From a virus (taxonomy: Duplodnaviria > Caudoviricetes), in IMG/VR virus record IMGVR_UViG_3300037751_000116, positions 1-63,385 of that record: a DNA stretch of 63,385 nucleotides. One strand, written 5' to 3'. The position numbers and the translations under genes were made by a program. Shown one piece after another: positions 1,946-52,403 of the stretch. A model generated the notes under the pieces. The model was given only the letters and a program-made list of their open reading frames with translations, ran no database searches and was not told where the DNA came from. Positions within the stretch are counted from its first letter, which is position 1; every line of letters starts with the position of its first letter.

Positions 1946-2113
1946 ATGATCAAGAAAAGCTTAATCCCCGTCGTGGTCGTTCTGGCCTTGATGCTTGCGG
2001 CGGTGTTCTTTTTGAACCCGACCGGCGGTTCCAACGTCGGCGACCCAGAGGGCGGCGGAGAGGCCGCTGGTGGGAACGATGGTTCCGGTGGCTCTGGCGG
2101 AGGGGACAAGTAA
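1946..2113 (+). CDS. 55-aa single-pass membrane protein with Gly/acidic tail (not in ORF track)
   Basis: RBS caggag; MIKKSLIPVVVVLALMLAAVFFLNPTGGSNVGDPEGGG...GDK; its stop abuts the holin start. Confidence 0.7.
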   Translation: MIKKSLIPVVVVLALMLAAVFFLNPTGGSNVGDPEGGGEAAGGNDGSGGSGGGDK

Positions 2114-2338
2114 GTGCAACAAGAGGAACTGCACCTACTGAAGTCGCGGTCCTTCTGGTTGGTGGTGGCGTCAATCGTCATCACCATCACCACAAACGCG
2201 GGCTATACTCTACCGATCAAGGATCACGAACTTGCAGCTTTGCTGCCCGAACTCGTATCTGCGATCTTGATGGTATGGGCTTACGTGGAACGCTACTTCG
2301 GTAAGAAAAAGCTGAGGGTTCGCCGTGTTCGGTCTTGA
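2114..2338 (+). CDS. Putative holin
   Basis: 74 aa, two hydrophobic segments, basic C-terminus, KSRSFW motif, located in lysis cassette. Confidence 0.7.
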   Translation: MQQEELHLLKSRSFWLVVASIVITITTNAGYTLPIKDHELAALLPELVSAILMVWAYVERYFGKKKLRVRRVRS

Positions 2339-2564
2339 TCTCGAAATCATCGGCGGCGGCATAGCCGCCCTGCTAATCCTTGTCGCATCGTGGGTGCGCC
2401 GGGGGCGAAAACTGAAACGCATCAAAGATGCCTTGAAATCGGAGGCTGCTAAAGATGAAATACTTGACGACATGGAGCGTTCTGTTCCTCAGTCTTTTCA
2501 CATTGACCGCTTGCTTGCAAAGCGAACCTCTGATACCAAAACCGACGGTGACGACGGTAGTTAA
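2325..2564 (+). CDS. Putative i-spanin (Rz-like)
   Basis: N-terminal TM followed by charged helix; overlaps a lipoprotein gene in another frame. Confidence 0.65.
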   Translation: MFGLDLEIIGGGIAALLILVASWVRRGRKLKRIKDALKSEAAKDEILDDMERSVPQSFHIDRLLAKRTSDTKTDGDDGS

Positions 2565-2721
2565 GGAAGTCTGTGCGGAGTTTCAGCCGGTCAACATCGA
2601 GCTGGCCACGAAACACCTTGATCTCGACAGCGTAGCATCCGACCCAGAGGCGGTTGATATGTTTCGTCGAATTGAGGCCAACGAGGCGCGGCGTAAGTCG
2701 TGTGCAGGGGAGTCTAAATGA
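2455..2721 (+). CDS. Putative o-spanin lipoprotein (Rz1-like)
   Basis: Signal peptide with lipobox LTAC; overlapping arrangement with i-spanin. Confidence 0.75.
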   Translation: MKYLTTWSVLFLSLFTLTACLQSEPLIPKPTVTTVVKEVCAEFQPVNIELATKHLDLDSVASDPEAVDMFRRIEANEARRKSCAGESK

Positions 2722-3455
2722 CCTATGATCTTAAGAAAGTTCAACAAGCTTTGAATGACCGCGGGTTCGAGGGCGCGAACGGCTTACCGTTGACGATCGA
2801 CGGGATAGCCGGGCCGAATACCAGTCACGCTATTCGATCCTTTAAGCGGTCGGTAGGGCTAGCCGATCGTGATTACGTCGGTCCCCTGACCTACGCGAAG
2901 CTGACCGGCGATGATGCAGATGTGCGCGCCAAAGTGCCGAACTCGAGAGCTAACCCACCTTGGTTCAACGAACTACTCGGGATGATGGGAACTCACGAGA
3001 CCAGAGACCATGCCGCACTATCCTTATGGCTGGCCTCCGATGGGGCTACCGTGGGCGATCCCTCGTCGATCCCGTGGTGTGGTGATGCAGTGGAAACCGC
3101 CATCCGGCTCGCTCTGCCCGGTATCCCGGTTCCTGAAAACCCCTACCTCGCATCCAATTGGACGAAGTGGGGTGTTCCCTGCAAACCGGCTTTAGGGTGC
3201 CTCTTGGTATTCTGGCGCGGGTCGCCTGACAGTTGGCAGGGTCACATCGGTTTCTATGCCGGGGAGTCAGACAGCAGTTATTATGTTCTGGGTGGAAACC
3301 AAAAGAACTCGGTTTCAATCGCGCCTATCAGCAAGACCCGGCTTCGTAAAGGCGGCTCACGGTGGCCAGATCATACCATGCACCCGGACGTGCCCCCACC
3401 ATCGGACCGCGTGGTCCGAATGTCGGGCGGAACCATCAGCACGAATGAAGCGTAA
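2718..3455 (+). CDS. Endolysin: peptidoglycan-binding domain plus NlpC/P60/CHAP-like (TIGR02594-type) peptidase
   Basis: VQQAL...DGIAGPNT...F...DYVGPLT PG-binding motif; PWCG, GHIGFY, LGGNQ catalytic motifs. Confidence 0.9.
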   Translation: MTYDLKKVQQALNDRGFEGANGLPLTIDGIAGPNTSHAIRSFKRSVGLADRDYVGPLTYAKLTGDDADVRAKVPNSRANPPWFNELLGMMGTHETRDHAALSLWLASDGATVGDPSSIPWCGDAVETAIRLALPGIPVPENPYLASNWTKWGVPCKPALGCLLVFWRGSPDSWQGHIGFYAGESDSSYYVLGGNQKNSVSIAPISKTRLRKGGSRWPDHTMHPDVPPPSDRVVRMSGGTISTNEA

Positions 3456-3458
3456 TAG

Positions 3459-3492
3459 AAGGGCTGACCGATGGGTCAGCCCTTTTTCTTTT
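3459..3492 (+). terminator. Intrinsic terminator at the convergence of the late (+) and replication (-) blocks
   Basis: aagggctgacc-gatg-ggtcagccctt stem followed by T-run. Confidence 0.85.
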
Positions 3493-3724
3493 GTTCAAAG
3501 CGGTCAAGGAACTCGGTGAGCGGACGGCTGAACTCAATCATCGCCGATGTGAGGGGCGCATAGCTAACGAGTGGCTCTAAATCCGACTCTCGCAGGCTGA
3601 CCGAGCGAACTACGTAGTAGCCCCCGTGAATATGCTGGTAGAGTGCACCTAGTTGCACCTTTGCCCGCGCCTTAGAGAGCATTCGTTTCAGTTCAGAGTT
3701 TGTCAATCTTTCTTCAGTAGCCAT
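3476..3724 (-). CDS. DUF1653-like protein
   Basis: YQHIHGGYYVV...LVSY...RPLTEFLDRF pattern. Confidence 0.65.
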   Translation of the reverse strand: MATEERLTNSELKRMLSKARAKVQLGALYQHIHGGYYVVRSVSLRESDLEPLVSYAPLTSAMIEFSRPLTEFLDRFEQKKKG

Positions 3725-4034
3725 TGGATTTACCTCGTATAAAGTTGAAACAATCGTTTAGGAACTCCGGGGTTACCGGGGTCCCTTGGTTCAGGTTATT
3801 GAATACTGGTAAGCCTTCAACGACCTCATAGCTGATACCACCGCCCGATCCGATACGGGTTTGCCAGAAGTCGAAAAGCTCCGATCCGATATGGCTACCC
3901 TGAATAAAGCAAAACCGTGGCTTGTGACCCATTGCCTCGCGTTGGCTCACATTGGGATGGTAGGCGTTACCCTCTCGGGTAGGGACCAGATGTATGCCGC
4001 AGAACGGGCAAGCCTTAAGCTCCGACGGGGTCAT
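3714..4034 (-). CDS. Hypothetical protein with Lar-like N-terminus
   Basis: ELKACPFCG motif. Confidence 0.55.
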   Translation of the reverse strand: MTPSELKACPFCGIHLVPTREGNAYHPNVSQREAMGHKPRFCFIQGSHIGSELFDFWQTRIGSGGGISYEVVEGLPVFNNLNQGTPVTPEFLNDCFNFIRGKSNGY

Positions 4035-4237
4035 CGCTGCACGGTCGCTAGTTCAGTTTCCAGTTTCTCGACCTTGGCAACCAGATCGTCGATAAGGTTG
4101 ATAAGGGCGCGGAGATCGTCGCCACTTATACCGTAGGTGCCTCGGTTTTGAAGTTCGATTTTTAGTCGAAAGAACTCGGAGCGATCAAACGCCCCGTCGG
4201 TCAGAAGTAAAAGGCTAGAGAGTGGAACCGCGGCCAT
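4031..4237 (-). CDS. Hypothetical protein (68 aa)
   Basis: RBS ggag before MAAVPL; overlaps the next gene by 4 nt. Confidence 0.6.
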   Translation of the reverse strand: MAAVPLSSLLLLTDGAFDRSEFFRLKIELQNRGTYGISGDDLRALINLIDDLVAKVEKLETELATVQR

Positions 4238-4343
4238 GGGGTGGGACTCCTTAAACAATGGCTGAGACTTGATATTACGGGGGTAGGAGGCGCAACTTCG
4301 CAATCTAGCTAGGGAAGGCAAGGGAAGCGCGGTAACGCGCCTC

Positions 4344-4502
4344 CTATGGCCCGTTTTTGGCGGGCGCTTTACTGCAGAACCCGAGCCACGCCGGGTCTTT
4401 GCCGGGGCAGTTGGGGCCAGTCGCAGTGGCAACCACCGTGAAGGTATAGCAGGCGGTCAATACGACGGTGAATAGCAAGGGGTAGAACAAAAACTTATCC
4501 AT
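4344..4502 (-). CDS. 52-aa putative lipoprotein / membrane peptide (not in ORF track)
   Basis: RBS gagg; MDKFLFYPLLFTVVLTAC lipobox-like; Cys pair in the mature part. Confidence 0.5.
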   Translation of the reverse strand: MDKFLFYPLLFTVVLTACYTFTVVATATGPNCPGKDPAWLGFCSKAPAKNGP

Positions 4503-4504
4503 GG

Positions 4505-4855
4505 TCATTTTACCTCGTAGGCGTATGAGTAGAGTTCACTGGCGATCAAGCAAGTATCCGATAGTCCGTAATCAAACGCTTGCAGCCGGAAAGCGCCCAC
4601 ACCCTTATCGTAGGCATTTTCCGCGAGTAAAAGTAGGGGTTCTGAAGTATCCTCTACCGCTAGAAAGAACTTGACCAGCGCGACCGCATAGTTATTAGCG
4701 ATCTTGAAATCACAATGGGCAGCGGCACCGCTGATATAACCAGCTTTGTTAGCTGCCAGTAGCGCCGACTCCATAGCAGCTACAACCTCCCGACTACCCT
4801 GTGCCGCTGCCCCCACGGGGGCCAAGAGGGCGGCGGCTAAAATGATTTTGAACAT
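4505..4855 (-). CDS. Exported protein with signal peptide
   Basis: MFKIILAAALLAPVGAAAQ signal peptide; two Cys. Confidence 0.65.
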   Translation of the reverse strand: MFKIILAAALLAPVGAAAQGSREVVAAMESALLAANKAGYISGAAAHCDFKIANNYAVALVKFFLAVEDTSEPLLLLAENAYDKGVGAFRLQAFDYGLSDTCLIASELYSYAYEVK

Positions 4856-36748: not shown

Positions 36749-36960
36749 CGATTAAGCTGGAGCCGCACCAAGAGAAAACGGTATACCCCGAAGTCGAGCA
36801 GTGGGCGTCGGAAAACTTCCATCTGGTCGACAGCGTCGATCTGTTCAAGGGCAGATTGACAATCACTACCCGGTCTATAATCCATGACCGGGAAACCCTT
36901 GACCTCATGATCGAGGACGGTATACTTGACCCGACCGAGATTGATTACGAAATCGAATAG
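36739..36960 (+). CDS. Small acidic protein
   Basis: RBS gaggtg. Confidence 0.6.
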   Translation: MPVAIKLEPHQEKTVYPEVEQWASENFHLVDSVDLFKGRLTITTRSIIHDRETLDLMIEDGILDPTEIDYEIE

Positions 36961-36973
36961 GAGCATCAAAAAC

Positions 36974-37555
36974 ATGATTACGAATACCGATGAACGCGCA
37001 AAGGCTATCCATGCCGCCAACGTCTCCGTTGGTTGGTGGGATGAGTGGCCGAACAAGCTCGACCGCCATGACACGGCGATGATGCTGACGGTCACCGAAC
37101 TCGCGGAGGCCGCAGAGGGCGCACGCAAGAGCCTCATGGATGATCACCTACCGCAATACGACATGTTTGCGGTGGAGTTGGCTGACGCATCAATCCGGTT
37201 GCTCGACCTCGCCGGGGCTTACTTTGAACTGGGTATTATGCCTGTCGGCGCTGACCACGGACACCCGTCCTTACAAGCGTATATCAACGCTTATACGGAA
37301 GCCCCGTGGTTAGAGGCTTCTATGCGCAAGCTGCCTAACCCTCTCGCACAGTTATACCAGGTCGTTAAAAGTATAACGGAGTATGACATGGGAGAGGCCG
37401 TCCAGGTTGCCGATGGCTTGGGGATGCTCGCCGTTCTGGCAGAGGTGCACGGGATTGATCTGGACCCGATCATCGACGCGAAGCTAGCCTACAACGCTGA
37501 ACGACTGGATCACAAGCGCGAAAGCCGGGCCGCGAAAGGGGGTAAGAAATGGTGA
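36974..37555 (+). CDS. MazG-like nucleotide pyrophosphohydrolase
   Basis: ELAEAAEGARK, VELADASIRLLDLAG, KLAYNAER. Confidence 0.8.
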   Translation: MITNTDERAKAIHAANVSVGWWDEWPNKLDRHDTAMMLTVTELAEAAEGARKSLMDDHLPQYDMFAVELADASIRLLDLAGAYFELGIMPVGADHGHPSLQAYINAYTEAPWLEASMRKLPNPLAQLYQVVKSITEYDMGEAVQVADGLGMLAVLAEVHGIDLDPIIDAKLAYNAERLDHKRESRAAKGGKKW

Positions 37556-38381: not shown

Positions 38382-38711
38382 ATGACCTACTACCATAAGT
38401 CTCGTGAACTAGCTCTAGCGGCGGGTCAGCCCTACGAGCAATACTGGACCTCCCGTGCCGAACTCGAACCCGACAACGGTTGGGTTCTTATCCTTCAGCC
38501 CAAGACCACAGAGGTCTTTAATTGGGCGATCCTGCCTATTCTCGAAACCGCTGAGATCGACCTTAGCGGATGCCCCCGGCTCCGCAAGCGGCCACCGGAG
38601 TACCGCGCAGCAACGCCGCCCGAACGTCCCAAGCGCCCCGCCCCGACCTCGGTGGCCGCTGATACCCCGCCGCCTACTTGGCAACCCGGCAACAAACTTC
38701 CTTGGGAGTAA
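38382..38711 (+). CDS. Hypothetical protein
   Basis: RBS ggag; own promoter at ~38325. Confidence 0.65.
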   Translation: MTYYHKSRELALAAGQPYEQYWTSRAELEPDNGWVLILQPKTTEVFNWAILPILETAEIDLSGCPRLRKRPPEYRAATPPERPKRPAPTSVAADTPPPTWQPGNKLPWE

Positions 38712-38713
38712 TA

Positions 38714-39205
38714 ATGGATTACATCGTACTTGAATGCACGCAGACCATGGAGTTTTGTCGATGGGGGCATAAACCCTATGGTCTGTGGGTGCCGGTAGAG
38801 GCGATCAGGCGGACGAAGCGTAGAGGGAATAACTTGGTGGTGGAAATAGTGTATCTAGCCGCCATGCCGGGATACGCTTTTGTTCCCCGATCTAACTGGG
38901 TCGAATGTCGGCGTCACGTTCCGTCTCAGTATAGGGTGTCGGTAATGGAGTACGATTATGTGGGTCGTCCTAAGACTGTCTCTCTGGATGATCTCACCCG
39001 GATGCAAGAGTTTATTCAGGGCGAACGGCTGGAGTCTTTGGCCCTTGAGGACGCCCCGCTCGTTATCGGCGATAAGGTCACCATCATGGTCGCCCCTTTC
39101 GAGGGGATGCGTGGAACAATCCAAAAGATTAGGAATGACAGCGTTCGTCTTTTGGTAGGCACTAAGTACATCAGCCTAAACCCCCGCTTTTTGCAAAAAG
39201 TATAA
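38714..39205 (+). CDS. NusG-family transcription antiterminator (NGN plus KOW)
   Basis: AMPGYAFV (NGN); GDKVTIMVAPFEGMRGTI (KOW); last gene before the late operon. Confidence 0.8.
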   Translation: MDYIVLECTQTMEFCRWGHKPYGLWVPVEAIRRTKRRGNNLVVEIVYLAAMPGYAFVPRSNWVECRRHVPSQYRVSVMEYDYVGRPKTVSLDDLTRMQEFIQGERLESLALEDAPLVIGDKVTIMVAPFEGMRGTIQKIRNDSVRLLVGTKYISLNPRFLQKV

Positions 39206-39330
39206 AGATTACGCTTGCGTGCACCGCGCCTCTATGCCTTGGCTTGGGGGCTTCCCGCCCTCTACGGGCTGGAATGTGGCCTCTCCCACCGAAATGGTGA
39301 CGAGCGGCGACCACGGGAACGGAAAGGCGT

Positions 39331-39849
39331 ATGAACTATCAGCATCTTAAACTACGACGTCAAAAAGGCCGAAAGATATATCTAACGGCTGAAGAGTTCC
39401 TGTCTGACGCAATCGAATACTTTGAGTGGGCACGCGACAACCCGCTAGAAGAAGAAAAACTCTTTGCGCACCAAGGCGAGGTTACTCGTGCCGTAGTCGA
39501 TAAGCCGCGCCCCTTCACCAAGCAAGCGTTGGCCCTATATCTCGGGGTTCCGGTCAGTCGCTTCGACTGCTACAAATCTCGCACAGGTAGTGACTCGGAG
39601 CCATGGCGCGAAGTCATGGAAATAATCGAACAGGTAATCTATACCCAGAAGTTCGAAAACGCAGTCGCGGGTCTCATGAACGCCGGAATTATAACCCGCG
39701 ATCTGGGATTGACCGACAAGCAAGAAATCGGTGGTATAAAAGATGCCCCGCCAGTTGCGTTCAACATCGTACCAATAGCGAGCGGCACTTTCTTGCCGCC
39801 TGAAGAACCTGACGAACCGGCTGTGATGCGGGCTAGTTCGTCAGGCTAG
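39331..39849 (+). CDS. terS: Terminase small subunit (P22 gp3-like)
   Basis: YFEWARDNPL, RPFT, YTQKFE.A..GLMN..II.RDLGL.DK. Confidence 0.85.
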   Translation: MNYQHLKLRRQKGRKIYLTAEEFLSDAIEYFEWARDNPLEEEKLFAHQGEVTRAVVDKPRPFTKQALALYLGVPVSRFDCYKSRTGSDSEPWREVMEIIEQVIYTQKFENAVAGLMNAGIITRDLGLTDKQEIGGIKDAPPVAFNIVPIASGTFLPPEEPDEPAVMRASSSG

Positions 39850-39926
39850 CGGACGGACTCCCCGAAATGTCCCCCAAGGCTAACCCGGGTTGAGACCGTC
39901 CGCGATATAACACCGGGGGATAGAGT

Positions 39927-40157
39927 ATGAGAATAACAGTCCTGTTAATCATCGCCTACGGGCTGAGAATGACGGCGGCTGTTCTGCGCGGGTGGGCTGG
40001 TTCCTTTCATGCTTGCAAATCTGATAGCCCAAGCCCGCCTGCGCGCCCTCCTGAGCCTCTTAAGCTCGATTTGGCTAGCTGCCCCTATTGCGGGGGCTTG
40101 CATAGCCCCCACGGCCGCTGCAATGGCTGCGGCGCACCAGCACTAGGAGTCACCTGA
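39927..40157 (+). CDS. Small protein with hydrophobic N-terminus and CxxC/CxxC ribbon
   Basis: CPYCGG...RCNGCGAP. Confidence 0.55.
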   Translation: MRITVLLIIAYGLRMTAAVLRGWAGSFHACKSDSPSPPARPPEPLKLDLASCPYCGGLHSPHGRCNGCGAPALGVT

Positions 40158-40158
40158 C

Positions 40159-40260
40159 ATGGCCGATCTCACCTGCCGTCCCGGATGCACCGAAAATGAA
40201 CCCGGCGACCTCCCAACCGCCCCGCCGACTGCCGGACCACCGGCGGCTCCGGTCGAGTAA
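40159..40260 (+). CDS. 33-aa Cys peptide (not in ORF track)
   Basis: RBS aggag; MADLTCRPGCTENEPGDLPTAPPTAGPPAAPVE; aligns with 47567-47668. Confidence 0.7.
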   Translation: MADLTCRPGCTENEPGDLPTAPPTAGPPAAPVE

Positions 40261-40294
40261 GGTTTAAATACTTCATACGTGAGGTAATCTGAGC

Positions 40295-40537
40295 ATGACC
40301 TTAGATCAGCTTATATCCGACAACATGGCTACCTTGATCATGGGGTCATTTGGTCTGGTGGCCACCGTGGTCACCATCCGCCTTACCATGCGTCAGGTGG
40401 TCCGTGATGTCGCATCCTTGACCGGCCGTCTCAACAATCACAGCGACCGCATCAAAGACCTTGAGGTCAAACAGGCGGAGCGACTAGGGTACGAGCGAGC
40501 CATGACCGAACTCAAGCAAAGGATTAAGGTGGCGTAA
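40295..40537 (+). CDS. Small membrane protein with coiled coil
   Basis: RBS gaggt; one TM then heptads. Confidence 0.7.
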   Translation: MTLDQLISDNMATLIMGSFGLVATVVTIRLTMRQVVRDVASLTGRLNNHSDRIKDLEVKQAERLGYERAMTELKQRIKVA

Positions 40538-40887
40538 TGTCTCCAGATAACAACCCTTACTCCAACTTCTTTTCGGGTATGCCATCATGGGTCAGAGGGA
40601 TTGTATTAGCGATGTCGGTTGTACCGCTATCGTTTGCCGTCAGCGGGCAGTTCTTGGGGGTCAGAGTTGGGGATTATCTCGACCGCTACGTTGAAATCCA
40701 GTTCGAGCAAATGCAGCGCGTTACCGATAATTCCGCCGACAAGGTAATAGAGGCTGTCAGCGAACAAGTCGGCGAAATTGAGGAACGCTTAGCGGATACC
40801 TCGAACCGCGTCGAAAGACTTGAGGGGTGGGCTTGTTCGGGAGGCAGAACCGGCCGTCCTGACTTTTGTAAGGGAATAAAGCAATGA
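40537..40887 (+). CDS. Membrane protein with coiled coil and C-terminal Cys pair
   Basis: TM segment; WACSGGRTGRPDFC. Confidence 0.7.
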   Translation: MSPDNNPYSNFFSGMPSWVRGIVLAMSVVPLSFAVSGQFLGVRVGDYLDRYVEIQFEQMQRVTDNSADKVIEAVSEQVGEIEERLADTSNRVERLEGWACSGGRTGRPDFCKGIKQ

Positions 40888-41132
40888 CCCCTTTTGATTA
40901 TCGCCCCGAGTCGTCAGAGGACGAGGACTGGGCCGACAATTGGTTGAGCAACAGCCTTGCTTACCTGAGCGACCGTTTCATCCCCAAGTGGTGCCAGAAC
41001 GGCGACCATTGGACCGTGCGGATTACGCTCTATCTGTGGGCCGACTGCGCCTGCTGTCTATTCTTTCGCGGAGTCACCGCGGGGGTTTCGCTTGCGGCCT
41101 CGGTGGCCGCTCTAATCTACCTCGTATCATAA
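40884..41132 (+). CDS. 82-aa membrane protein with CxxCxxxR motif
   Basis: ATGA coupling; WC...WADCACCLFFRG followed by C-terminal TM. Confidence 0.7.
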   Translation: MTPFDYRPESSEDEDWADNWLSNSLAYLSDRFIPKWCQNGDHWTVRITLYLWADCACCLFFRGVTAGVSLAASVAALIYLVS

Positions 41133-41146
41133 TAGGAGTCCCACAA

Positions 41147-41317
41147 ATGGCTTGTGGTTGCGGTAAAAAGGCGGCTCGTCCGTCCATCAACAAAACTACG
41201 GTAGCTCGCGTCGGTTCGACCACCTCACGGGTCGATACTGCCAAGACCTACCAATCGGCTACGATCAAGAGCGCGCCGACCGCCCCGGTATCTGGTACGA
41301 CCCGGAAAACGGTTTAA
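41147..41317 (+). CDS. 56-aa basic peptide with N-terminal MACGCG
   Basis: RBS aggag; start re-placed from ORF 40940. Confidence 0.7.
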   Translation: MACGCGKKAARPSINKTTVARVGSTTSRVDTAKTYQSATIKSAPTAPVSGTTRKTV

Positions 41318-41323
41318 TGATCC

Positions 41324-42553
41324 GTGGACCTGAATATCCCAGAAGTCTACATGCCTCTGTGGCATGGGGGCTATGAACATTACGCATTCTTTGGCGGTCG
41401 CGGCGGGGCGAAATCCCACGGGGTAGGCGAGGCCACCGTTGCGCTGTCATGCCGATCTGAAGAACGGGTCGTTTGCGGACGTCAATATCAGAACTCTATC
41501 AAGGACTCTGTTAAAGAGCTACTTGAAAAGAAAATCTACTCGATGGGTATGGCGGCTTACTTCAAGTCGACAGACCGTGAGTTGATCAACGTAAGCACGG
41601 GTAGCCGGTTCAGTTTCTTGGGTATGGACCGCAACCCGGAAAGCGCTAAATCGTTAGAGGGTGCTACGTTCTTCTGGGGCGAGGAGGCGCAGACCTTTAC
41701 GAGACGCAGCGTCGAGCTTATCGTTCCTACCATCCGGGCCGCTGGTTCGCGGATGGCTTGGACTTGGAACCCTCGGTTTCGTACGGACGAGGTCGACTCG
41801 ATGTTCCGGGGTCCGCACCCGCCTGAAAACTCCTATATCCGTAACGTAAGTTGGCGAGATAATCCTTGGTTCTATCGAACACGGATGCCTAGCGAGTTCC
41901 GGCGCAGCAAGCTCGCCAAGCCTAAACGTCATGCCCATATCTGGGAAGGCGGATACGACGAGAACCCCGACGCGGCGATCTTTGATAACTGGGCCATCGG
42001 ACGGCCTTATGTCATCCCTGATAAGTGCATCCCGCGCTACGGTATGGATTTCGGCTTTGGTTCCGATCCGAACGCGGTCGTCAAGGTCTATGTCATCGAA
42101 CCAGAGGATTTGGGTCTTGACCCTGACTTCTATATCGGTTTCATTTATATAGCCGCTGAGTCGGTTGGTTATAAGGTTGCAAATAAAGACCTGCCCGCCT
42201 TGATGGACGCTGTGCCCGGCATTCGTGAGTGGAATATTACGGCCGACAGCGCCCGACCTGAAACGATCGACTATGTGAACTCAAAAGGGTTCAATGTATT
42301 CGGTTCGATCAAGGGCGCGGGTTCCGTTAAAAACGGTATCAACTTCATGCAGGGGTACCAAATCCTAGTTGATCCTGACTGCCCCGTTACGGCGGAGGAG
42401 ATCAAAAACTATATGTGGAAGTTGGACCCCAACGACAAGCCGCTGCCTATGCCCGCCGAATATCAGCAAGATCACTGTATTGATGGCGTTCGTTACGCTA
42501 TTGAGGATTTGACTCGCGATGACTACCAAGGCGGTGGCGTCGATTACGTATAA
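41324..42553 (+). CDS. terL: Terminase large subunit (PBSX family)
   Basis: GGRGGAKS, GEEA, TWNP, GMDFGF, ADSARP, DHCIDGVRYA. Confidence 0.95.
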   Translation: MDLNIPEVYMPLWHGGYEHYAFFGGRGGAKSHGVGEATVALSCRSEERVVCGRQYQNSIKDSVKELLEKKIYSMGMAAYFKSTDRELINVSTGSRFSFLGMDRNPESAKSLEGATFFWGEEAQTFTRRSVELIVPTIRAAGSRMAWTWNPRFRTDEVDSMFRGPHPPENSYIRNVSWRDNPWFYRTRMPSEFRRSKLAKPKRHAHIWEGGYDENPDAAIFDNWAIGRPYVIPDKCIPRYGMDFGFGSDPNAVVKVYVIEPEDLGLDPDFYIGFIYIAAESVGYKVANKDLPALMDAVPGIREWNITADSARPETIDYVNSKGFNVFGSIKGAGSVKNGINFMQGYQILVDPDCPVTAEEIKNYMWKLDPNDKPLPMPAEYQQDHCIDGVRYAIEDLTRDDYQGGGVDYV

Positions 42554-42565
42554 AGGACACGACCA

Positions 42566-43867
42566 ATGGCGCTTAGTATCTGGCCGTTCCAGAAAGCCGC
42601 CCCAAACAGGGGGTCTGCTGACGGCCCCAAACAACCGGACGTTTTCTACCTTAATAACGGCGTAGGGGTTGCCGTCGTCACGTGGTCTGACAGCATCGCC
42701 GCGCAACAGGCTATGTCGCATCCGATCGTATACCGGGCATTGCATAAGCTCGCCTCGTCGGTGCAACAAGTCAAGTGGTTCGCTGAGATCGACCCGGATA
42801 CAGCAACAGAAGACCAGGCCGGAAAGGTTGCAATTATTCGCAAGCTGAACGCTGTACTCAATTCGCCAAACGATGACATGACCCCGGAAATGCTCCGGTA
42901 CTGGTTGGCGCTCAACTATGCAGTCTACGGACGCGCCCCGCTTCGCGTTACTCATGGCGCGCTTGACCCCACGGTGGCCAATGGTATCTACACTCTGGAA
43001 ACCAAGCAAATGGTCGCGCATTATAACCAGCGCGGTTCTGTCACCAAGTACGATTATGGCATGGGTGAAACCAAAGAGTCATATCCGTCGTTCTTGACGT
43101 GGAAAAACGAACGCCTGACCAAAGGCTTTGCTGATATGATCTGGCGACCCGGCCTGAAGGGGTACCAGCATCGCACCGATTATAATACGCCAATGCACTC
43201 GCTTGGTTTGCCTGCGCAGGTCATTCGTTCCCTCTTGGTCCGGGCAATCAACACGGCTGAGGGTCACCCGAACGTTCGCTACCTCGTCACCTGTTCTAAA
43301 ACTCTTCAAGAGGAACAGAAAAAGGCACTCAAGCGGTACCTGAACGAAGACCACGGACCTGACGGCCCGGAAAGCGGCAAGGTGCCTATTCTTCAGAACG
43401 CCGCCGATGTGGTAATTCACAAGCTCGACAACGATCTGTCGGACATTCACAGTAAGATGCCTTCTGACGACATGGCACGATTGATTTTTGGCGCTTTCGG
43501 TATCCCTATCGCCCTTGCGGGCATGGGGGCAGCGGATGGCGCTAAGTTCGCTGGTAACTTCATCGAAAGTCGCGCTTCGTTCTGGCAGGATACGGTGGTT
43601 CCTGATTATGTGAGTCCGATCTTTAAGGGCTTGACTCGGGTGCTCTGTCCTATCGGGGTTCGGATCAGTCCTGACCTCGACTCCATCCCGGCGATGGTCG
43701 ATGGTCGCGTTAGCTCGATGTCTAAAGCAAGCGCCGTCAACTTCTTGACCACTGACGAAAAGCGCGAATTGTTCGGGTGGGCCGCGACCACCTTGATACC
43801 TCAGGTACAAGGGGCAACCACAACCCCCGCCGCCGCGCCAACCACGGAGAACCCCCCAAATGAATAA
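42566..43867 (+). CDS. Portal protein (HK97 type)
   Basis: Position after terL; LNSPND, IFGAFGIP, LTTDEKRE. Confidence 0.88.
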   Translation: MALSIWPFQKAAPNRGSADGPKQPDVFYLNNGVGVAVVTWSDSIAAQQAMSHPIVYRALHKLASSVQQVKWFAEIDPDTATEDQAGKVAIIRKLNAVLNSPNDDMTPEMLRYWLALNYAVYGRAPLRVTHGALDPTVANGIYTLETKQMVAHYNQRGSVTKYDYGMGETKESYPSFLTWKNERLTKGFADMIWRPGLKGYQHRTDYNTPMHSLGLPAQVIRSLLVRAINTAEGHPNVRYLVTCSKTLQEEQKKALKRYLNEDHGPDGPESGKVPILQNAADVVIHKLDNDLSDIHSKMPSDDMARLIFGAFGIPIALAGMGAADGAKFAGNFIESRASFWQDTVVPDYVSPIFKGLTRVLCPIGVRISPDLDSIPAMVDGRVSSMSKASAVNFLTTDEKRELFGWAATTLIPQVQGATTTPAAAPTTENPPNE

Positions 43868-44665: not shown

Positions 44666-46108
44666 ATGCGCGATACCACAATTCTGAGCCGGGGCGCTTT
44701 CCTCACCAAAGAGGCACCGCCCATTGACGACAAGATCAAAGAGGCCGGGCTTGAAAAGCTCGCCAAGGATATGTCGGATGCGGTCACCCATATGACCAAA
44801 TTCAAGACCGACTACGAGGCGGACGCAAAGGTTCTCAAAGAACTGCGCGACAAAGTCGAAAGCCTCGGTTCGGTGGACGCTGAGACCAAGGCCGCTCTGC
44901 AAAAGACCGGGACTGATCTGGCAGAGTCTTTGACCAAGCTTCAGGCTTGCGAACAGGCGATTGAAACCCTCAAAAAGGAAATGGATCAACCCATTTTCCG
45001 GGGCGACAAGGACCTGAAGGACCATGACCGGGAAAATGCGATTGCACTGCAGCGCCGCGCCCATATCCATAAGGGCGGCACCCAGCACGATTTCGTTGCC
45101 GATCTGGACAACCTCGTCAATCCGGCTGATTACCGCTCTGCGGTCCACAAGCTTATGAGTGTTGGAACCGAGACCAAGGCGGGTATCATGCGTCAGTTCT
45201 CCGAAGCTGAACGCAAGGCGTTTGACGCGGCCTCGCTCGACAGCGGCTTCTTCAGCCCGGAACTTCTCGGTATCGAGGTTGACTGCGAAATCGAGTGCGC
45301 CTCGTTGCTTGATCTGTACCAGCAAATCTCGGTCAGCCGTTCGACGTTCATGTTCCCCCACGTGGAGAGCTACGGCGACATCGGCCAGTATGACTGCGAT
45401 GCGAAGTGCGACGCTGAGTACGGCCCTGAAGGCAACATTACCTGGAAAAACGGTCAGACCTACGACTTCCGTGGCGTCTTCTGTTTCCAGCGTGACACGC
45501 TGCGCGAAGCCAACTACGACTTGCTCGGCTTCATGATGCGGGCAGCGGCCCGGTCCTACCGGATCAACCGCAACCAAGCCTTGATCACCGGCGACGGTGT
45601 CAACGAACCGATGGGTTGGTTGACCGCAGATTGTTTCACCAAGCTGCAAACGCCCGCCGCCAACCCGACGCACCAAGACCTGCGTCAGTTCTTGGCGTCG
45701 GCTCCGGTTGAGTATGGCCCGGTCACGGCGACGATGCACCAGAATGTGTTTGCGTACTTCGCTTCCATGGTCGACAATACCGGTCGGTTCATCTTTGGCG
45801 ACGGTTTGATGGGCTTCAGCCCCAATGACGTGCGGGACTCCATCCGCATCAGCAACTGTCTGCCCGATGCGACCGCTGGCGGTACCCTCGGTTCGGCTGA
45901 CGATCCTTTCGTCGCTGGCGACTTCATTCTCGCCGCCGGTGTTTGGGAACGAGCCTACGCCGCCGTGAACCATCGCCCGATGTTCATGGAACAGTACGAA
46001 GGCGGCTCCAGTGCATGGTGCGTCAAGTACCAGTTCGGCGCGAAAGACGGCGGCTTTGTCGCTTGCTGCCCCGCCGCTCGCACACTGACCGCCGGTGCCG
46101 GGGGCTAA
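44666..46108 (+). CDS. Major capsid protein (HK97 fold with delta domain), Cys-rich
   Basis: N-terminal coiled coil; ITGDGVNEPMG, DNTGRFIF; strong codon bias. Confidence 0.92.
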   Translation: MRDTTILSRGAFLTKEAPPIDDKIKEAGLEKLAKDMSDAVTHMTKFKTDYEADAKVLKELRDKVESLGSVDAETKAALQKTGTDLAESLTKLQACEQAIETLKKEMDQPIFRGDKDLKDHDRENAIALQRRAHIHKGGTQHDFVADLDNLVNPADYRSAVHKLMSVGTETKAGIMRQFSEAERKAFDAASLDSGFFSPELLGIEVDCEIECASLLDLYQQISVSRSTFMFPHVESYGDIGQYDCDAKCDAEYGPEGNITWKNGQTYDFRGVFCFQRDTLREANYDLLGFMMRAAARSYRINRNQALITGDGVNEPMGWLTADCFTKLQTPAANPTHQDLRQFLASAPVEYGPVTATMHQNVFAYFASMVDNTGRFIFGDGLMGFSPNDVRDSIRISNCLPDATAGGTLGSADDPFVAGDFILAAGVWERAYAAVNHRPMFMEQYEGGSSAWCVKYQFGAKDGGFVACCPAARTLTAGAGG

Positions 46109-46181: not shown

Positions 46182-46589
46182 ATGCCTGTTCAATCTAACA
46201 TCGCCGTCGGCACGGTTGGCACCGTGGCTTGGGATGGTACCACGGCACGCCCGATGGATATTCGTAAGCATATCCGGTTCGGTTGGTCGTTCGAGGTCAT
46301 CGGAGCAATCGCGGTTGACGCTGTGTTCAATATTCGGTCGGCCCCGCCGTCCGCTGAAGACCCCTGTGTTCCCGGCGCTTTCGCCGCGGTGCCTGAGGTC
46401 TCGATTTGCGACAGCCCTGCGGAGCCGAGTGCGCAAGCAACCGTGACGATCCCCGCCGGTACCCCTATCGGCACAATCTGCGGCGGCACTATTCCTTGTC
46501 GCCCGAACGCTTTTGTGCAACTCGTTTCGGCGTCGGGCACAACCGCCAATGTTCTCGTCGTGGGGCTGCGCCAAGGGCCGACCATGTAA
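46182..46589 (+). CDS. Putative capsid decoration protein
   Basis: Follows MCP; beta-rich; 4 Cys. Confidence 0.6.
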   Translation: MPVQSNIAVGTVGTVAWDGTTARPMDIRKHIRFGWSFEVIGAIAVDAVFNIRSAPPSAEDPCVPGAFAAVPEVSICDSPAEPSAQATVTIPAGTPIGTICGGTIPCRPNAFVQLVSASGTTANVLVVGLRQGPTM

Positions 46590-47566: not shown

Positions 47567-47668
47567 ATGGGTACTCTGACCTGCCGTACAGCTTGCGCGC
47601 AGAACACGGCAACAGTCCTTGTTTCTGCGCCTTGCTTCACTTGTGTAGCGCCCGCTGAGGTGGTCTAA
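47567..47668 (+). CDS. 33-aa Cys peptide, candidate capsid linking protein (not in ORF track)
   Basis: Strong RBS aggaggtg; MGTLTCRTACAQNTATVLVSAPCFTCVAPAEVV. Confidence 0.75.
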   Translation: MGTLTCRTACAQNTATVLVSAPCFTCVAPAEVV

Positions 47669-50900: not shown

Positions 50901-52403
50901 ATGGCAATTGACAGCCTTAGAGACGGTTTCGTCCGCCTCTGTTTTGATCCGAACGCCAATGTGCTCGGTGAAAGATGCCGGTTGGTACTGGAGGGGCAAA
51001 TGACTGCCACCGGTACTGCAACCGCCGACCAACTGGTCAAGGTCACTTCGGCGCGCGATCTGGACGCCATGTTTGGCGAGGGTTCGGTCATCGGCGAGTC
51101 GCTGAAGGTCGCAATCAACTGCTGCGGAAACGACGCGGTTGAAATCTTTGCAGTACCACGCGACGATGCCGCCACCGCGGTGGCCGCTGAATATACCCTG
51201 ACAATCGTCGGTCCTGCGACTACCGACGGGCGGCTCGATTTCTACTGGGGTGACTCTCAGTGGAACATTTCGGTTCGGGTTGCGGATGGTGACGACGAAA
51301 CTACCATCGCCGCTGCGATCGTGGCCGCGCTGCCTACTGGGTTCCCTTATACCGCAGTAGCCCTTGCCGGTGTGATCACCTTGACCGCTCGCAATGCGGG
51401 CACCGCTGGCAACTTCCTTAACGGGATTGTCAACTGGCACCAGCGCAACGACTATATGCCTGAAGGCGTTACGGCGACTTTTGCGCAAACCGTTGACGGT
51501 GAAACTGATCCGGCCCCGCTCGACTATAGCGCGGTATTCGGTGATTGCTGCCTATGCTGTTGGGCGCTTCTGACCGGCGACGAGGTTTGGCAGGACGGTA
51601 TGGTCGATTTCCTGAACGAGGCGTGGTCCTGTGACAAGCCTCAATGTTTCGGTCACGGCTACACCTACAACAGTGGTTCGCTTGGCGAAATTCTCGCCTC
51701 CGATACCAATTCGGCTACCATTAGCCGCTTGGCCCATTGCGATACCGACTCGAACTTCCCGTGGCTGAAGGTCGCCGCCTATGCAGCCAAGTCGTGCTGC
51801 CTGACGGTCGACAATCCTGAGATCAGTATTCAGGGTCCGAACTACGGGGTTCTGGATTGTATCCGCGCCCCTGAGTCGTGCAGTTCCTGTTTCACCTTCG
51901 ACGAGCAAGAGCAGTTGCGCGACAGCGGCTTTGTGGTTACCGTGCCGGTAAGTGGCGGCTCGGGTGGTTTGACTTCCCCGATGATCACCAACGATATTAC
52001 CAACAACCGGTTCGATGCTGAAGGCCGCGAAAACCTGACTTTCCAGTCGGTTTCTTCCCGCCGCTTGGCCACTGAGACCGCAACCTTGATTGCAGAGCAA
52101 CTGCAACAGTTCAATGGTCTCGGTTACTACACCGACGGCACCAACATCCGCGAAGGCGCACTCGGCGTCAACCGCCGGATGATGCTTGGTACCATGCGGG
52201 CGTGGGTTAAGACGCAGGTCGGAGCGCTGTTCAGTCAGTTCGATGATCTGGACCGCGACTTGACCTTTACGGATGACTTCGAGGTCGCGCCGCGCTGTCA
52301 GGGCGTTCCCGGCAAGCTGTACATGAACCTGATTTATCGGCCTCCGGTTCGCATTCGTCAGGTGGTTGTCAATGCTGTTCCGAAGCTGTTGAACAACTGC
52401 TAA
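50901..52403 (+). CDS. Contractile tail sheath protein, Cys-rich
   Basis: MFGEGS, ITLTARNAGTAGN, EQEQLRDSG; 500 aa, before tube. Confidence 0.88.
   Translation: MAIDSLRDGFVRLCFDPNANVLGERCRLVLEGQMTATGTATADQLVKVTSARDLDAMFGEGSVIGESLKVAINCCGNDAVEIFAVPRDDAATAVAAEYTLTIVGPATTDGRLDFYWGDSQWNISVRVADGDDETTIAAAIVAALPTGFPYTAVALAGVITLTARNAGTAGNFLNGIVNWHQRNDYMPEGVTATFAQTVDGETDPAPLDYSAVFGDCCLCCWALLTGDEVWQDGMVDFLNEAWSCDKPQCFGHGYTYNSGSLGEILASDTNSATISRLAHCDTDSNFPWLKVAAYAAKSCCLTVDNPEISIQGPNYGVLDCIRAPESCSSCFTFDEQEQLRDSGFVVTVPVSGGSGGLTSPMITNDITNNRFDAEGRENLTFQSVSSRRLATETATLIAEQLQQFNGLGYYTDGTNIREGALGVNRRMMLGTMRAWVKTQVGALFSQFDDLDRDLTFTDDFEVAPRCQGVPGKLYMNLIYRPPVRIRQVVVNAVPKLLNNC

Follow-up and report, generated by a model that had tools for sequence, protein, structure and literature searches.

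What purpose does a cluster of small, cysteine-rich genes serve between the two terminase genes of a tailed phage? The question arises from the IMG/VR virus record IMGVR_UViG_3300037751_000116, the whole of which (63,385 bases, completeness rating 94%) was analysed and is termed the window below. The window encodes a myovirus, and the interval between its terS and terL genes, which code for the small and large terminase subunits, is tiled by six small open reading frames (ORFs), g1 to g6, with gaps of 1-37 nucleotides (nt) or overlaps between them. An earlier note on this DNA had proposed that the six genes form a membrane-bound, quinone-linked thiol-oxidation relay for the cross-linking of virion proteins, with the E10R-A2.5L-G4L pathway of cytoplasmic disulfide formation in poxviruses as the known precedent.

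The present analysis points to a different answer. The interval is probably a slot that houses parts of a disulfide-stapled particle together with membrane companions, rather than a dedicated thiol-oxidation relay. A relay of all six genes is not supported: g2 and g6 appear to be pieces of the particle, g1 is zinc-ribbon-like, g3 is devoid of cysteine (Cys), and none of the six products matches a known thiol-oxidoreductase family. The connection with virion cross-linking is real, but it runs mostly in the opposite sense, with g2 and g6 as presumed substrates and not as enzymes. The readings of g2, g6 and g1 imply that most of the Cys clusters would be cross-link partners or metal ligands, not catalysts.

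The six ORFs and the particle they accompany

All six ORFs, five of them with clustered Cys residues as first described, are preceded by a Shine-Dalgarno-like purine run 5-11 nt upstream of the start (assessed by eye), and stop and start codons overlap at g3/g4 and at g4/g5. The Cys residues occupy positions 30, 52, 55, 65 and 68 in g1, 6 and 10 in g2, 100 and 111 in g4, 37, 55, 57 and 58 in g5, and 3 and 5 in g6. Together they amount to 15 Cys among 443 residues (3.4%), compared to 1.7% in the crude ORF set of the window (binomial tail, P = 0.01 against 1.7% and 5.5e-5 against 1%). Three or four of the products had been thought to be membrane-anchored; we found one hydrophobic stretch of 19 residues in each of four (g1, g3, g4 and g5), with a mean Kyte-Doolittle hydropathy of 1.70-1.96. 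Candidate promoters and terminators between positions 38600 and 42000 did not exceed shuffle expectation, which is consistent with co-transcription of the interval with the packaging genes.

None of the six products gave a confident match to any Pfam or PHROG family, and the thioredoxin, DsbA, DsbB, VKOR, Erv/ALR and glutaredoxin families of these two collections were not matched at E <= 0.1. The poxvirus pathway therefore shares with this locus the concept only, namely small viral Cys proteins and a disulfide-rich particle. No Erv/ALR, glutaredoxin or thioredoxin domain was found in g1-g6 at this threshold, and at least two of the six would be parts of the particle itself.

The particle, as judged by homology, is of the Milano type and carries the capsid, minor-capsid and sheath Cys residues of a solved disulfide network. 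Downstream of terL, the plus strand codes for the portal, prohead protease, major capsid protein, sheath, two baseplate hub proteins and a Baseplate_J protein. The outer virion proteins are indeed Cys-rich, as the earlier note had observed: 11 Cys among 480 residues in the major capsid protein, 4 among 135 in the minor capsid protein, 18 among 500 in the sheath, 20 among 430 in the Baseplate_J protein and 17 among 471 in the protein that follows it. The inner proteins contain 2 of 433 (portal), 0 of 259 (protease) and 0 of 871 (likely tape measure). All ten Cys residues of Milano gp9 align with Cys in the major capsid protein of the window. The same applies to the four Cys residues of Milano gp10 (60, 74, 99 and 105) and the minor capsid protein, in which Cys62 corresponds to Milano Cys60 and Cys100 to Milano Cys99, and to 12 of the 16 Cys residues of the Milano sheath, including Cys244 and Cys467. 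The published accounts of the solved Milano and 7-7-1 structures describe, in the passages concerned, an extensive network of disulfides that spans capsid, neck, sheath and baseplate (PMC10491603, PMC10811340, PMC12796354), and the Cys residues to which those of the window align in the capsid, minor capsid and sheath proteins are disulfide-bonded according to the same passages (PMC10491603, PMC12796354, PMC10811340). The Cys-richness of the outer proteins is thus already explained by the relationship of the window to Milano and 7-7-1.

Among cultured phages, the capsid protein retrieved one group only, comprising six records: the Synechococcus phages Yong-L2-223 and Ssp-JY38 (63% identity) and the Agrobacterium phages Milano, 7-7-1 (two records) and OLIVR4 (49-51%). 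The window sheath is 48-68% identical to the sheaths of this group. Taking terL, capsid and sheath together, identity is 38-50% to Milano and 7-7-1 and 44-68% to Yong-L2-223, which displays the same division into Cys-rich outer and Cys-poor inner proteins. A nucleotide search with positions 39300-42600 gave no match to cultured phages. The lineage is that of the Milano/7-7-1-like myoviruses of Alphaproteobacteria and Cyanobacteria. In 80 related IMG/VR loci, the complete ORFs contain 10-15 Cys in the capsid protein (n = 64), 12-23 in the sheath (n = 39), always 4 in the minor capsid protein (n = 65) and 1-7 in the portal (n = 63); these loci were found with Cys-containing capsid peptides as patterns, and relatives with a Cys-poor capsid could not surface.

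Linking-type and terminase-adjacent peptides in a variable slot

The 33-residue product of g2 is best read as the CxxxC anchor strand with which a linking protein begins, of the type of linking protein 1 (LP1) but without its display domain. In the relevant parts of the Milano neck and capsid paper, the resolved segments, residues 1-10 of linking protein 2 (LP2) and residues 1-13 of LP1, rest on the minor capsid protein, Cys6 and Cys10 of LP2 bond Cys99 and Cys60 of that protein, respectively, and LP1 adds a protruding immunoglobulin (Ig)-type domain (PMC10491603). Like Milano LP1 (gp16) and LP2 (gp128) and their 7-7-1 counterparts (8fwg, 9hz8), g2 possesses the strand with Cys6 and Cys10, and the window also encodes the partner minor capsid protein with the equivalents of Cys60 and Cys99. 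Unlike the Milano genes, g2 is located between terS and terL and not in the head-neck module, and its product contains neither the second Cys pair of LP2 (PCFxC) nor a display domain.

The g2-type strand is not restricted to a short peptide. A g2-like N-terminus of about 20 residues, with two Cys four positions apart, heads proteins of 261, 370, 834, 1024 and 1092 amino acids in the same slot of relatives, which append large display domains to the strand, as LP1 does its Ig-type domain. A profile built from g2 and the N-termini of these 261-1092-residue proteins (A7) was aligned by hhalign with the LP2 family profile (A8) at a probability of 94.4% and an E value of 8.7e-8, over 21 columns (residues 1-21). 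The window has, in addition, an LP2 orthologue of its own, which lies between two head-neck genes, like gp128 in Milano. Counterparts of 27-50 amino acids occur in most of the related loci, in 40 or more distinct forms. ORFs as short as this one (47567-47668) are easily missed by gene callers.

Homology places g6 in a family of 4-7 kDa proteins that are present in 7-7-1 virions and are encoded next to terL or the portal gene. In an alignment of 29 sequences (A6), M1, C3, C5 and G6 are invariant and R53 and V56 occur in at least 90%; members start with M-G/A-C-x-C-G, continue with a basic body and end in R-x-x-V. The g6 hidden Markov model (HMM) matches, at 1.2e-8, a 42-residue "structural protein" of 7-7-1 encoded directly before terL, with a computed mass of 4,313 Da. 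The virion mass-spectrometry table in the part of the 7-7-1 paper that holds it includes gp111, at 4,295 Da and with two peptides (PMC3517404). Milano gp5, annotated as virion-associated and likewise of 42 residues, also belongs to the family. Like 7-7-1 gp111 and Milano gp5, g6 has the characteristic start, the basic C-terminal R-x-x-V and the place beside terL (6 nt upstream of it), but at 56 residues it is longer, with an extended middle part. g6-like ORFs were identified in 43 of the 93 loci scanned, in the orders g5-g6-terL, terL-g6-portal and g5-g6-portal; in the more distant relatives the gene thus follows terL or precedes the portal gene, unlike its position in 7-7-1 and Milano. In L013 (2774-4486), the portal gene comes directly after g5 and g6, with no terL between. 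A word-based profile search with g6 gave 17 clusters without informative names (three of them "hypothetical protein"), on contigs of up to 65 kilobases (kb). In Yong-L2-223 (L038), a g6-family ORF with an M-G-C-G-C-G start lies unannotated at record positions 3190-3375, flanked by the annotated g5 homologue (2920-3174) and terL (3396-4682). The LP2 orthologue and the ORFs of the g2 and g6 types are small unannotated peptides that belong to the network and are easily missed in annotation. Cys6 and Cys10 of g2 and Cys3 and Cys5 of g6 would serve as cross-link partners, and the disulfides would most likely close by proximity on assembled particles once oxidising conditions are met.

The separation of terS and terL is itself a feature of the lineage. 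In 7-7-1 the two genes are widely separated, which the corresponding passage of the genome paper remarks upon as unusual (PMC3517404); the distance is about 7.5 kb, and the intervening genes are annotated mostly as virion structural proteins. The Milano genes that precede terL are gp1 and gp2 (virion-associated), gp3 and gp4 (hypothetical, gp4 of 81 amino acids) and gp5. In closer relatives the gap measures about 5 kb (L002, L005 and L008) and is occupied by proteins of 261-1092 amino acids, then by small coiled-coil membrane proteins and then by g5 and g6. Among the closer relatives a short gap is found only in L010 (about 1.1 kb) and in the window (1.5 kb). The interval of the window is accordingly the compact form of a variable, lineage-typical slot for virion accessory genes and small membrane proteins.

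Very large proteins are encoded in this slot upstream of g5 in L005 (2111-4615), L008 (1256-4534), L046 (1559-4633) and L036 (910-5562), with sizes of 834, 1092, 1024 and 1550 amino acids, respectively, and up to 53 Cys. Those of L005, L008 and L046, the three that were aligned, begin with the linking-protein anchor strand, and these anchor-strand proteins may be capsid-displayed fibres or enzymes. Repeats and GDS-type hydrolase-like stretches are visible by eye in the L005 protein.

Could some of the six ORFs be chance ORFs or dead remnants? The 33-residue g2 is without a counterpart of the same length in the relatives searched, g1 has a single homologue, and a 125-residue ORF (40940-41317), in frame with g6, overlaps g5. 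Against this stand the Shine-Dalgarno-like site of every ORF and the tiling of the interval, the homologues of g3 to g6 in unchanged order in L046, the conservation of g5 and g6 as families, and the match of the short form of g6 to the 4.3-kDa protein recorded by mass spectrometry in the 7-7-1 table. We consider this explanation very unlikely.

Table 1. Features of the window discussed in the text, with their positions, strands and supporting evidence
Feature	Position	Strand	Description and evidence
One-helix ORF, 55 amino acids	within cassette 1946-3455	+	At end of tail module
Holin-like ORF, 74 amino acids	2114-2338	+	Two helices; phrog_297, E 0.011
i-spanin-like ORF	2325-2564	+	Overlaps 2455-2721
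o-spanin-like lipoprotein ORF	2455-2721	+	Clear lipobox
Endolysin	2718-3455	+	PG_binding_1 domain
terS, small terminase subunit	39331..39849	+	PF16677 GP3_package 2.2e-16; phrog_606 7.4e-35
g1, 76 amino acids	39927..40157	+	N-terminal hydrophobic anchor, proline-rich linker, CxxC-x9-CxxC (zinc-ribbon-like); accessory, few relatives
g2, 33 amino acids	40159..40260	+	Putative linking-protein-type capsid anchor peptide (Cys6, Cys10), no display domain
g3, 80 amino acids	40295..40537	+	One membrane helix and coiled coil, no Cys
g4, 116 amino acids	40537..40887	+	Membrane helix, coiled coil, C-terminal WAC...FC Cys pair
g5, 82 amino acids	40884..41132	+	Small membrane protein, four Cys, motif C-[PA]-C-C-L-x-x-R opening the C-terminal membrane helix
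g6, 56 amino acids	41147..41317	+	Small basic protein; family of 7-7-1 gp111 and Milano gp5
terL, large terminase subunit	41324..42553	+	Terminase_3 9.6e-24; Terminase_3C 7.6e-13
Major capsid protein	44666..46108	+	PF05065 2.3e-10; 11 Cys
Minor capsid (decoration) protein	46182..46589	+	PDB 9hz8_G 3e-21; 8fwg "Minor capsid protein, gp10" 5.2e-20; expected disulfide partner of linking peptides
LP2 orthologue, 33 amino acids	47567..47668	+	Cys6, Cys10, Cys23, Cys26; 8fwg "Linking protein 2, gp128" E 3.7e-4; 9hz8_R E 7.8e-4; motif scan
Tail sheath	50901..52403	+	phrog_165 1.8e-54; 18 Cys

The g5 family and its resemblance to DsbB

Pfam and PHROGs hold no model for the g5 family, and 0 of 65 aligned members share any family. 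A profile search of 1.84 billion representative proteins retrieved 102 family representatives with E values of 0.001 or below (1e-10 or better for 57), nearly all of 50-130 amino acids; a word-indexed search with g5 gave only four clusters. Cys55, Cys58 and Arg62 are invariant in the 65 aligned members, and Cys37, Cys57 and Gly67 occur in at least 90%. The resulting pattern, CxxCxxxR, is found in 97 of the 102 representatives, most commonly as CPCCLLFR (6 of 65 members), with the membrane helix next. An AlphaFold2 model of g5 (mean predicted local distance difference test score 79.8) consists of short helices followed by one long helix (residues 56-81) that starts at the motif; an additional hydrophobic segment is present in only 5 of the 102 representatives.

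g5 is found beside terL in all 48 evaluable capsid-related loci, i.e., those that retain at least 600 nt upstream of terL, and in 20 of 25 loci that were found via g5 itself; in the other five it precedes the portal gene or lies in another head module. The g5 HMM also matches Milano gp4 (2e-15) and a one-transmembrane ORF of 7-7-1 upstream of gp111 (5e-16). Both are annotated as hypothetical, and g5 agrees with them in family, size, position and the Cys motif before the C-terminal helix. Three Chelativorans species and Bradyrhizobium lablabi carry prophage copies. In the portion of the 7-7-1 virion mass-spectrometry table that was covered, the g5 homologue was not found, unlike its 4.3-kDa neighbour (PMC3517404).

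The earlier note had linked the genes of the interval to Cys-rich capsid or sheath genes. For g5 the 48 loci agree with this, and no g5 was found in the fetched parts of PBR31, Tedan, MW202613, phiAP1 and SfV, five phages that are poor in Cys but have a related terL or sheath; g5 is, however, also present in L032 and L036, the capsid proteins of which contain 0 and 1 Cys, and where the neighbouring proteins hold 16 and 53 Cys. In L032 and in L034-L036, the latter being Chelativorans prophages, g5 and a g6-like ORF are immediately followed by a head module of another kind, poor in Cys (0-1 each in portal and capsid protein), so that g4, g5 and g6 can move as a set without the Cys-rich capsid.

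The conserved motif invites a comparison with DsbB, a membrane thiol oxidase that serves the bacterial periplasm and is linked to quinone. The comparison encourages a more ambitious reading: that g5 is a minimal DsbB-like, quinone-coupled thiol oxidase of the inner membrane which, with its CxxC on the cytoplasmic side, starts or speeds up the stapling of virion proteins before lysis, either directly or via small Cys-containing virion peptides such as g6 or those of the linking type. In the prophage hosts, the DsbB homologues (encoded in 3 of 3 genomes) read C-P/K-L-C-L/I-x-Q-R followed by a membrane helix, including CPLCLEQR and CPLCLLQR, and the CxxCxxxR pattern stands at the start of a membrane helix in 5 of 5 such homologues, as CPCCLLFR does in members of the g5 family; the model of g5 likewise puts the CxxC at the N-terminal end of the helix. 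In E. coli DsbB, as described in a section of the literature on the enzyme, Cys44 forms a charge-transfer complex with the quinone and Arg48 stacks under its ring (PMC11205269); the residues invariant in g5 are those that act on the quinone in DsbB. The occurrence of g5 in all 48 relatives with capsids of 10-15 Cys, as well as in Milano, 7-7-1 and Yong-L2-223, its absence from the fetched parts of the Cys-poor outgroup phages and from the covered portion of the 7-7-1 virion table, and a charge bias in favour of a cytoplasmic motif would all suit such an enzyme.

The likeness is nevertheless short. Aligned by hhalign, the g5 family (A3, 65 rows) and the five host DsbB homologues share 12 columns at a probability of 5.5%, and the DsbB family PF02600 is matched by 0 of 65 g5 members at E <= 1. 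g5 shares with DsbB the local C-P-x-C-L-x-x-R directly before a membrane helix, but it has one helix and not four, and counterparts of the second DsbB Cys pair, His91 and Met142 were not seen in it; Cys37 and Cys57 are conserved, but there is no loop equivalent to that which carries the second pair in DsbB. Searches for a related fold were likewise empty. Foldseek with the g5 model gave a best E value of 7.2 against the PDB and 7.2 against BFVD, with none at E <= 0.001; VIA-align reached a best Z of 4.1, without a fold assignment. Look-alikes in the ESM Atlas scored nothing above 0.82 by features and no template-modelling score beyond 0.45 by structure, and the g5 profile retrieved no PDB sequence at E <= 1. 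Fused or longer forms (168-2000 amino acids) were absent at E <= 0.001, which is weak evidence, and twelve longer representatives displayed no known domain by eye. A predicted g5-g6 complex, with both partners supplied as alignments, scored 0.02 against a mark of 0.32, in a run that had no controls, and is given no weight in either direction.

The co-occurrence, moreover, was recorded within one lineage, from loci found by Cys-containing patterns, and does not count as independent evidence, and the g5 copies beside the Cys-poor capsids of L032 and L036 speak against the oxidase as well. Four cytoplasmic Cys residues more often form a zinc site than a redox site. On this balance the oxidase reading is an unlikely one, although the description of the system as membrane-bound and quinone-linked does fit the CxxCxxxR of g5 before its helix; it applies to this short motif only and not to the six genes. 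g5 may work like DsbB, as the local motif suggests, though it is not a member of that family. The broader proposal, in which the g5 family would constitute a new class of minimal single-helix thiol oxidases that pass electrons from virion Cys residues to quinone at the cytoplasmic face, with g6 or the linking peptides as first acceptors or carriers, we regard as improbable.

The orientation of g5 in the membrane bears on a further possibility. The signals from charges and extra segments conflict. Lysine and arginine number a median of 2 in the flank before the helix and a mean of 0.3 in the tail after it, which favours a cytoplasmic N-terminal domain, and a cytoplasmic motif is also indicated by P0122, a member that has a basic tail and one helix more; P0098 and P0108, which begin with signal-like segments, point to the opposite topology, and thereby away from the cytoplasmic oxidase. 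Were g5 to face the periplasm, it might mimic the active-site helix of DsbB, engage host DsbA or DsbB and so alter disulfide formation in the envelope. With the N-terminus outside, the helix would run like helix 2 of DsbB with the motif at its outer end, the N-terminal domain is acidic (median net charge -4), and the prophage hosts do encode DsbB. But no signal peptide is present in 97 or more of the 102 representatives, the lysine and arginine bias favours the other orientation, and the proposed host interaction derives from a short likeness in sequence. A periplasmic mimic is accordingly highly improbable. Within the preferred reading, a slot of particle parts and membrane companions, our leading guess is that g5 would partner g6 in head assembly, as a membrane module carrying Cys or metal.

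Membrane companions, lysis genes and the assembly of stapled particles

The other membrane proteins of the interval are less widely distributed. The hydrophobic stretch of g1 (residues 3-21, hydropathy 1.70) is followed by a part that gave a weak, sub-threshold match to Ribosomal_L32p (E 0.026). Its one homologue, in L010, shares the build of hydrophobic start, proline-rich linker and CxxC-x8/9-CxxC but is devoid of Cys30, which argues against a lipoprotein; no further homologue occurs in the fetched loci. We infer that g1 is a membrane-tethered zinc ribbon, the four CxxC Cys residues of which would bind zinc, and a basic stretch after the anchor of the L010 homologue suggests that the zinc-ribbon-like part is cytoplasmic. 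g3 (residues 14-32, hydropathy 1.75) matched XhlA below threshold (E 4e-4, 20.9 bits against a cut-off of 34.7) and has a homologue in L046, in the same order g3-g4-g5-g6-terL. g4 (residues 22-40, hydropathy 1.89) has two homologues, in L046 and L032, each of which immediately precedes g5; the C-terminal WAC...FC pair of g4 is kept in L046 and also appears in a 66-residue ORF of L010. The overlapping stop and start codons of g3, g4 and g5 indicate that the three may be translationally coupled, and their products may cooperate at the inner membrane in head morphogenesis.

Small membrane proteins of a late operon could also be directed at the host or take part in lysis, e.g., in superinfection exclusion, in lysis timing or as holin or spanin accessories, in which case the Cys residues of these membrane proteins (g1, g3, g4 and g5) would lie in the periplasm, where the host Dsb system would oxidise them. 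The single hydrophobic helix of all four, the coiled coils of g3 and g4, the XhlA match and the presence of other small coiled-coil membrane proteins at the same place in relatives would agree with this. Phage T7 offers a precedent, its spanin genes 18.5 and 18.7 being located between those for the two terminase subunits. A spanin pair was considered because g1 has a possible lipobox followed by a proline-rich tail, and because g3 and g4 contain coiled coils. The interval does not, however, conform to a two-component spanin locus, since it contains no endolysin and the only lipobox-like Cys of g1, Cys30, is missing from its homologue; a lysis cassette is located elsewhere, at 2114-3455 (Table 1), and g1, g3 and g4 were dropped as spanin or lysis genes. 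g5, in turn, stays beside terL or the portal gene down to about 41% terL identity, which would be unusual for exclusion or moron genes. A host-directed or lysis-related role for these four proteins is thus rather improbable.

Other genes precede the packaging module. A "transcription antiterminator" (phrog_6386; 38678-39205, plus strand) lies directly upstream of terS, and a similar ORF precedes terS or g5 in the distant relatives L020, L023 and L030 (by eye), suggesting a conserved late-operon regulator. A pyrophosphatase gene (36926-37555, plus strand; phrog_5658, 4.4e-44) is among the genes that precede the module.

Several observations weigh against the interpretation of the interval as a slot of particle parts and membrane companions. 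The link between g2 and the Milano linking proteins runs via the LP2 family profile and spans only 21 columns, and neither g2 alone nor the A7 profile retrieved a PDB chain at E <= 10. The second Cys pair (P-C-F-x-C), which is invariant in the LP2 family (20 of 20, including the orthologue in the window), is absent from g2; in 7-7-1, this pair forms the ring at the capsomer centre. No g2-sized counterpart was found in the loci searched, g2 is unique to the window, and it could be the inert remnant of a deleted large gene. For g6, the profile gave only noise against the PDB (best 0.056, a chemokine tail), and no chain provides its location in the virion. g1 and g3 have one known homologue each and g4 two, and their roles are read from architecture only. 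Finally, neither the presence of g5 in every member of the stapled lineage examined (48 of 48) nor the fact that its conserved residues are exactly those of CxxCxxxR at the membrane helix is explained by this interpretation, in which the time and place of disulfide formation are themselves inferred.

The passages of the Milano and 7-7-1 papers are silent on when, where and by what means the bonds form in a reducing host. The available parts of the Milano tail paper take up only the possible reduction of the bonds at infection and do not contain the words cytoplasm, periplasm, oxidoreductase or oxidiz- (PMC10811340); cytoplasm and oxidiz- are likewise absent from those of the Milano neck and capsid paper (PMC10491603). 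A 2026 paper on a siphovirus tail mentions viral sulfhydryl oxidases, in the portion available, in its reference list only. Literature searches yielded no phage-encoded enzyme for virion disulfides, in agreement with the earlier note, which knew of no described phage equivalent of the poxvirus pathway.

Disulfide-stapled phage particles are a current structural topic through Milano, 7-7-1 and Pam3. The Milano-type network is by no means confined to Agrobacterium phages: it also occurs in a cyanophage, in prophages of Chelativorans and Bradyrhizobium and in more than 80 metagenomic contigs. Phages of the Milano/7-7-1 type and their terS-terL slot were already known; it is the uncharacterised g5 family that stands out. 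g5 is a presumed non-virion membrane protein with a DsbB-like motif that travels with the whole lineage, which makes it a single, cheaply testable candidate for bond formation. Should the oxidase reading fail, the g5 family would still be conserved and uncharacterised and would still accompany the genes for packaging and portal; should it be true, the phage could, by means of g5, assemble a covalently stapled particle although the cell is reducing.

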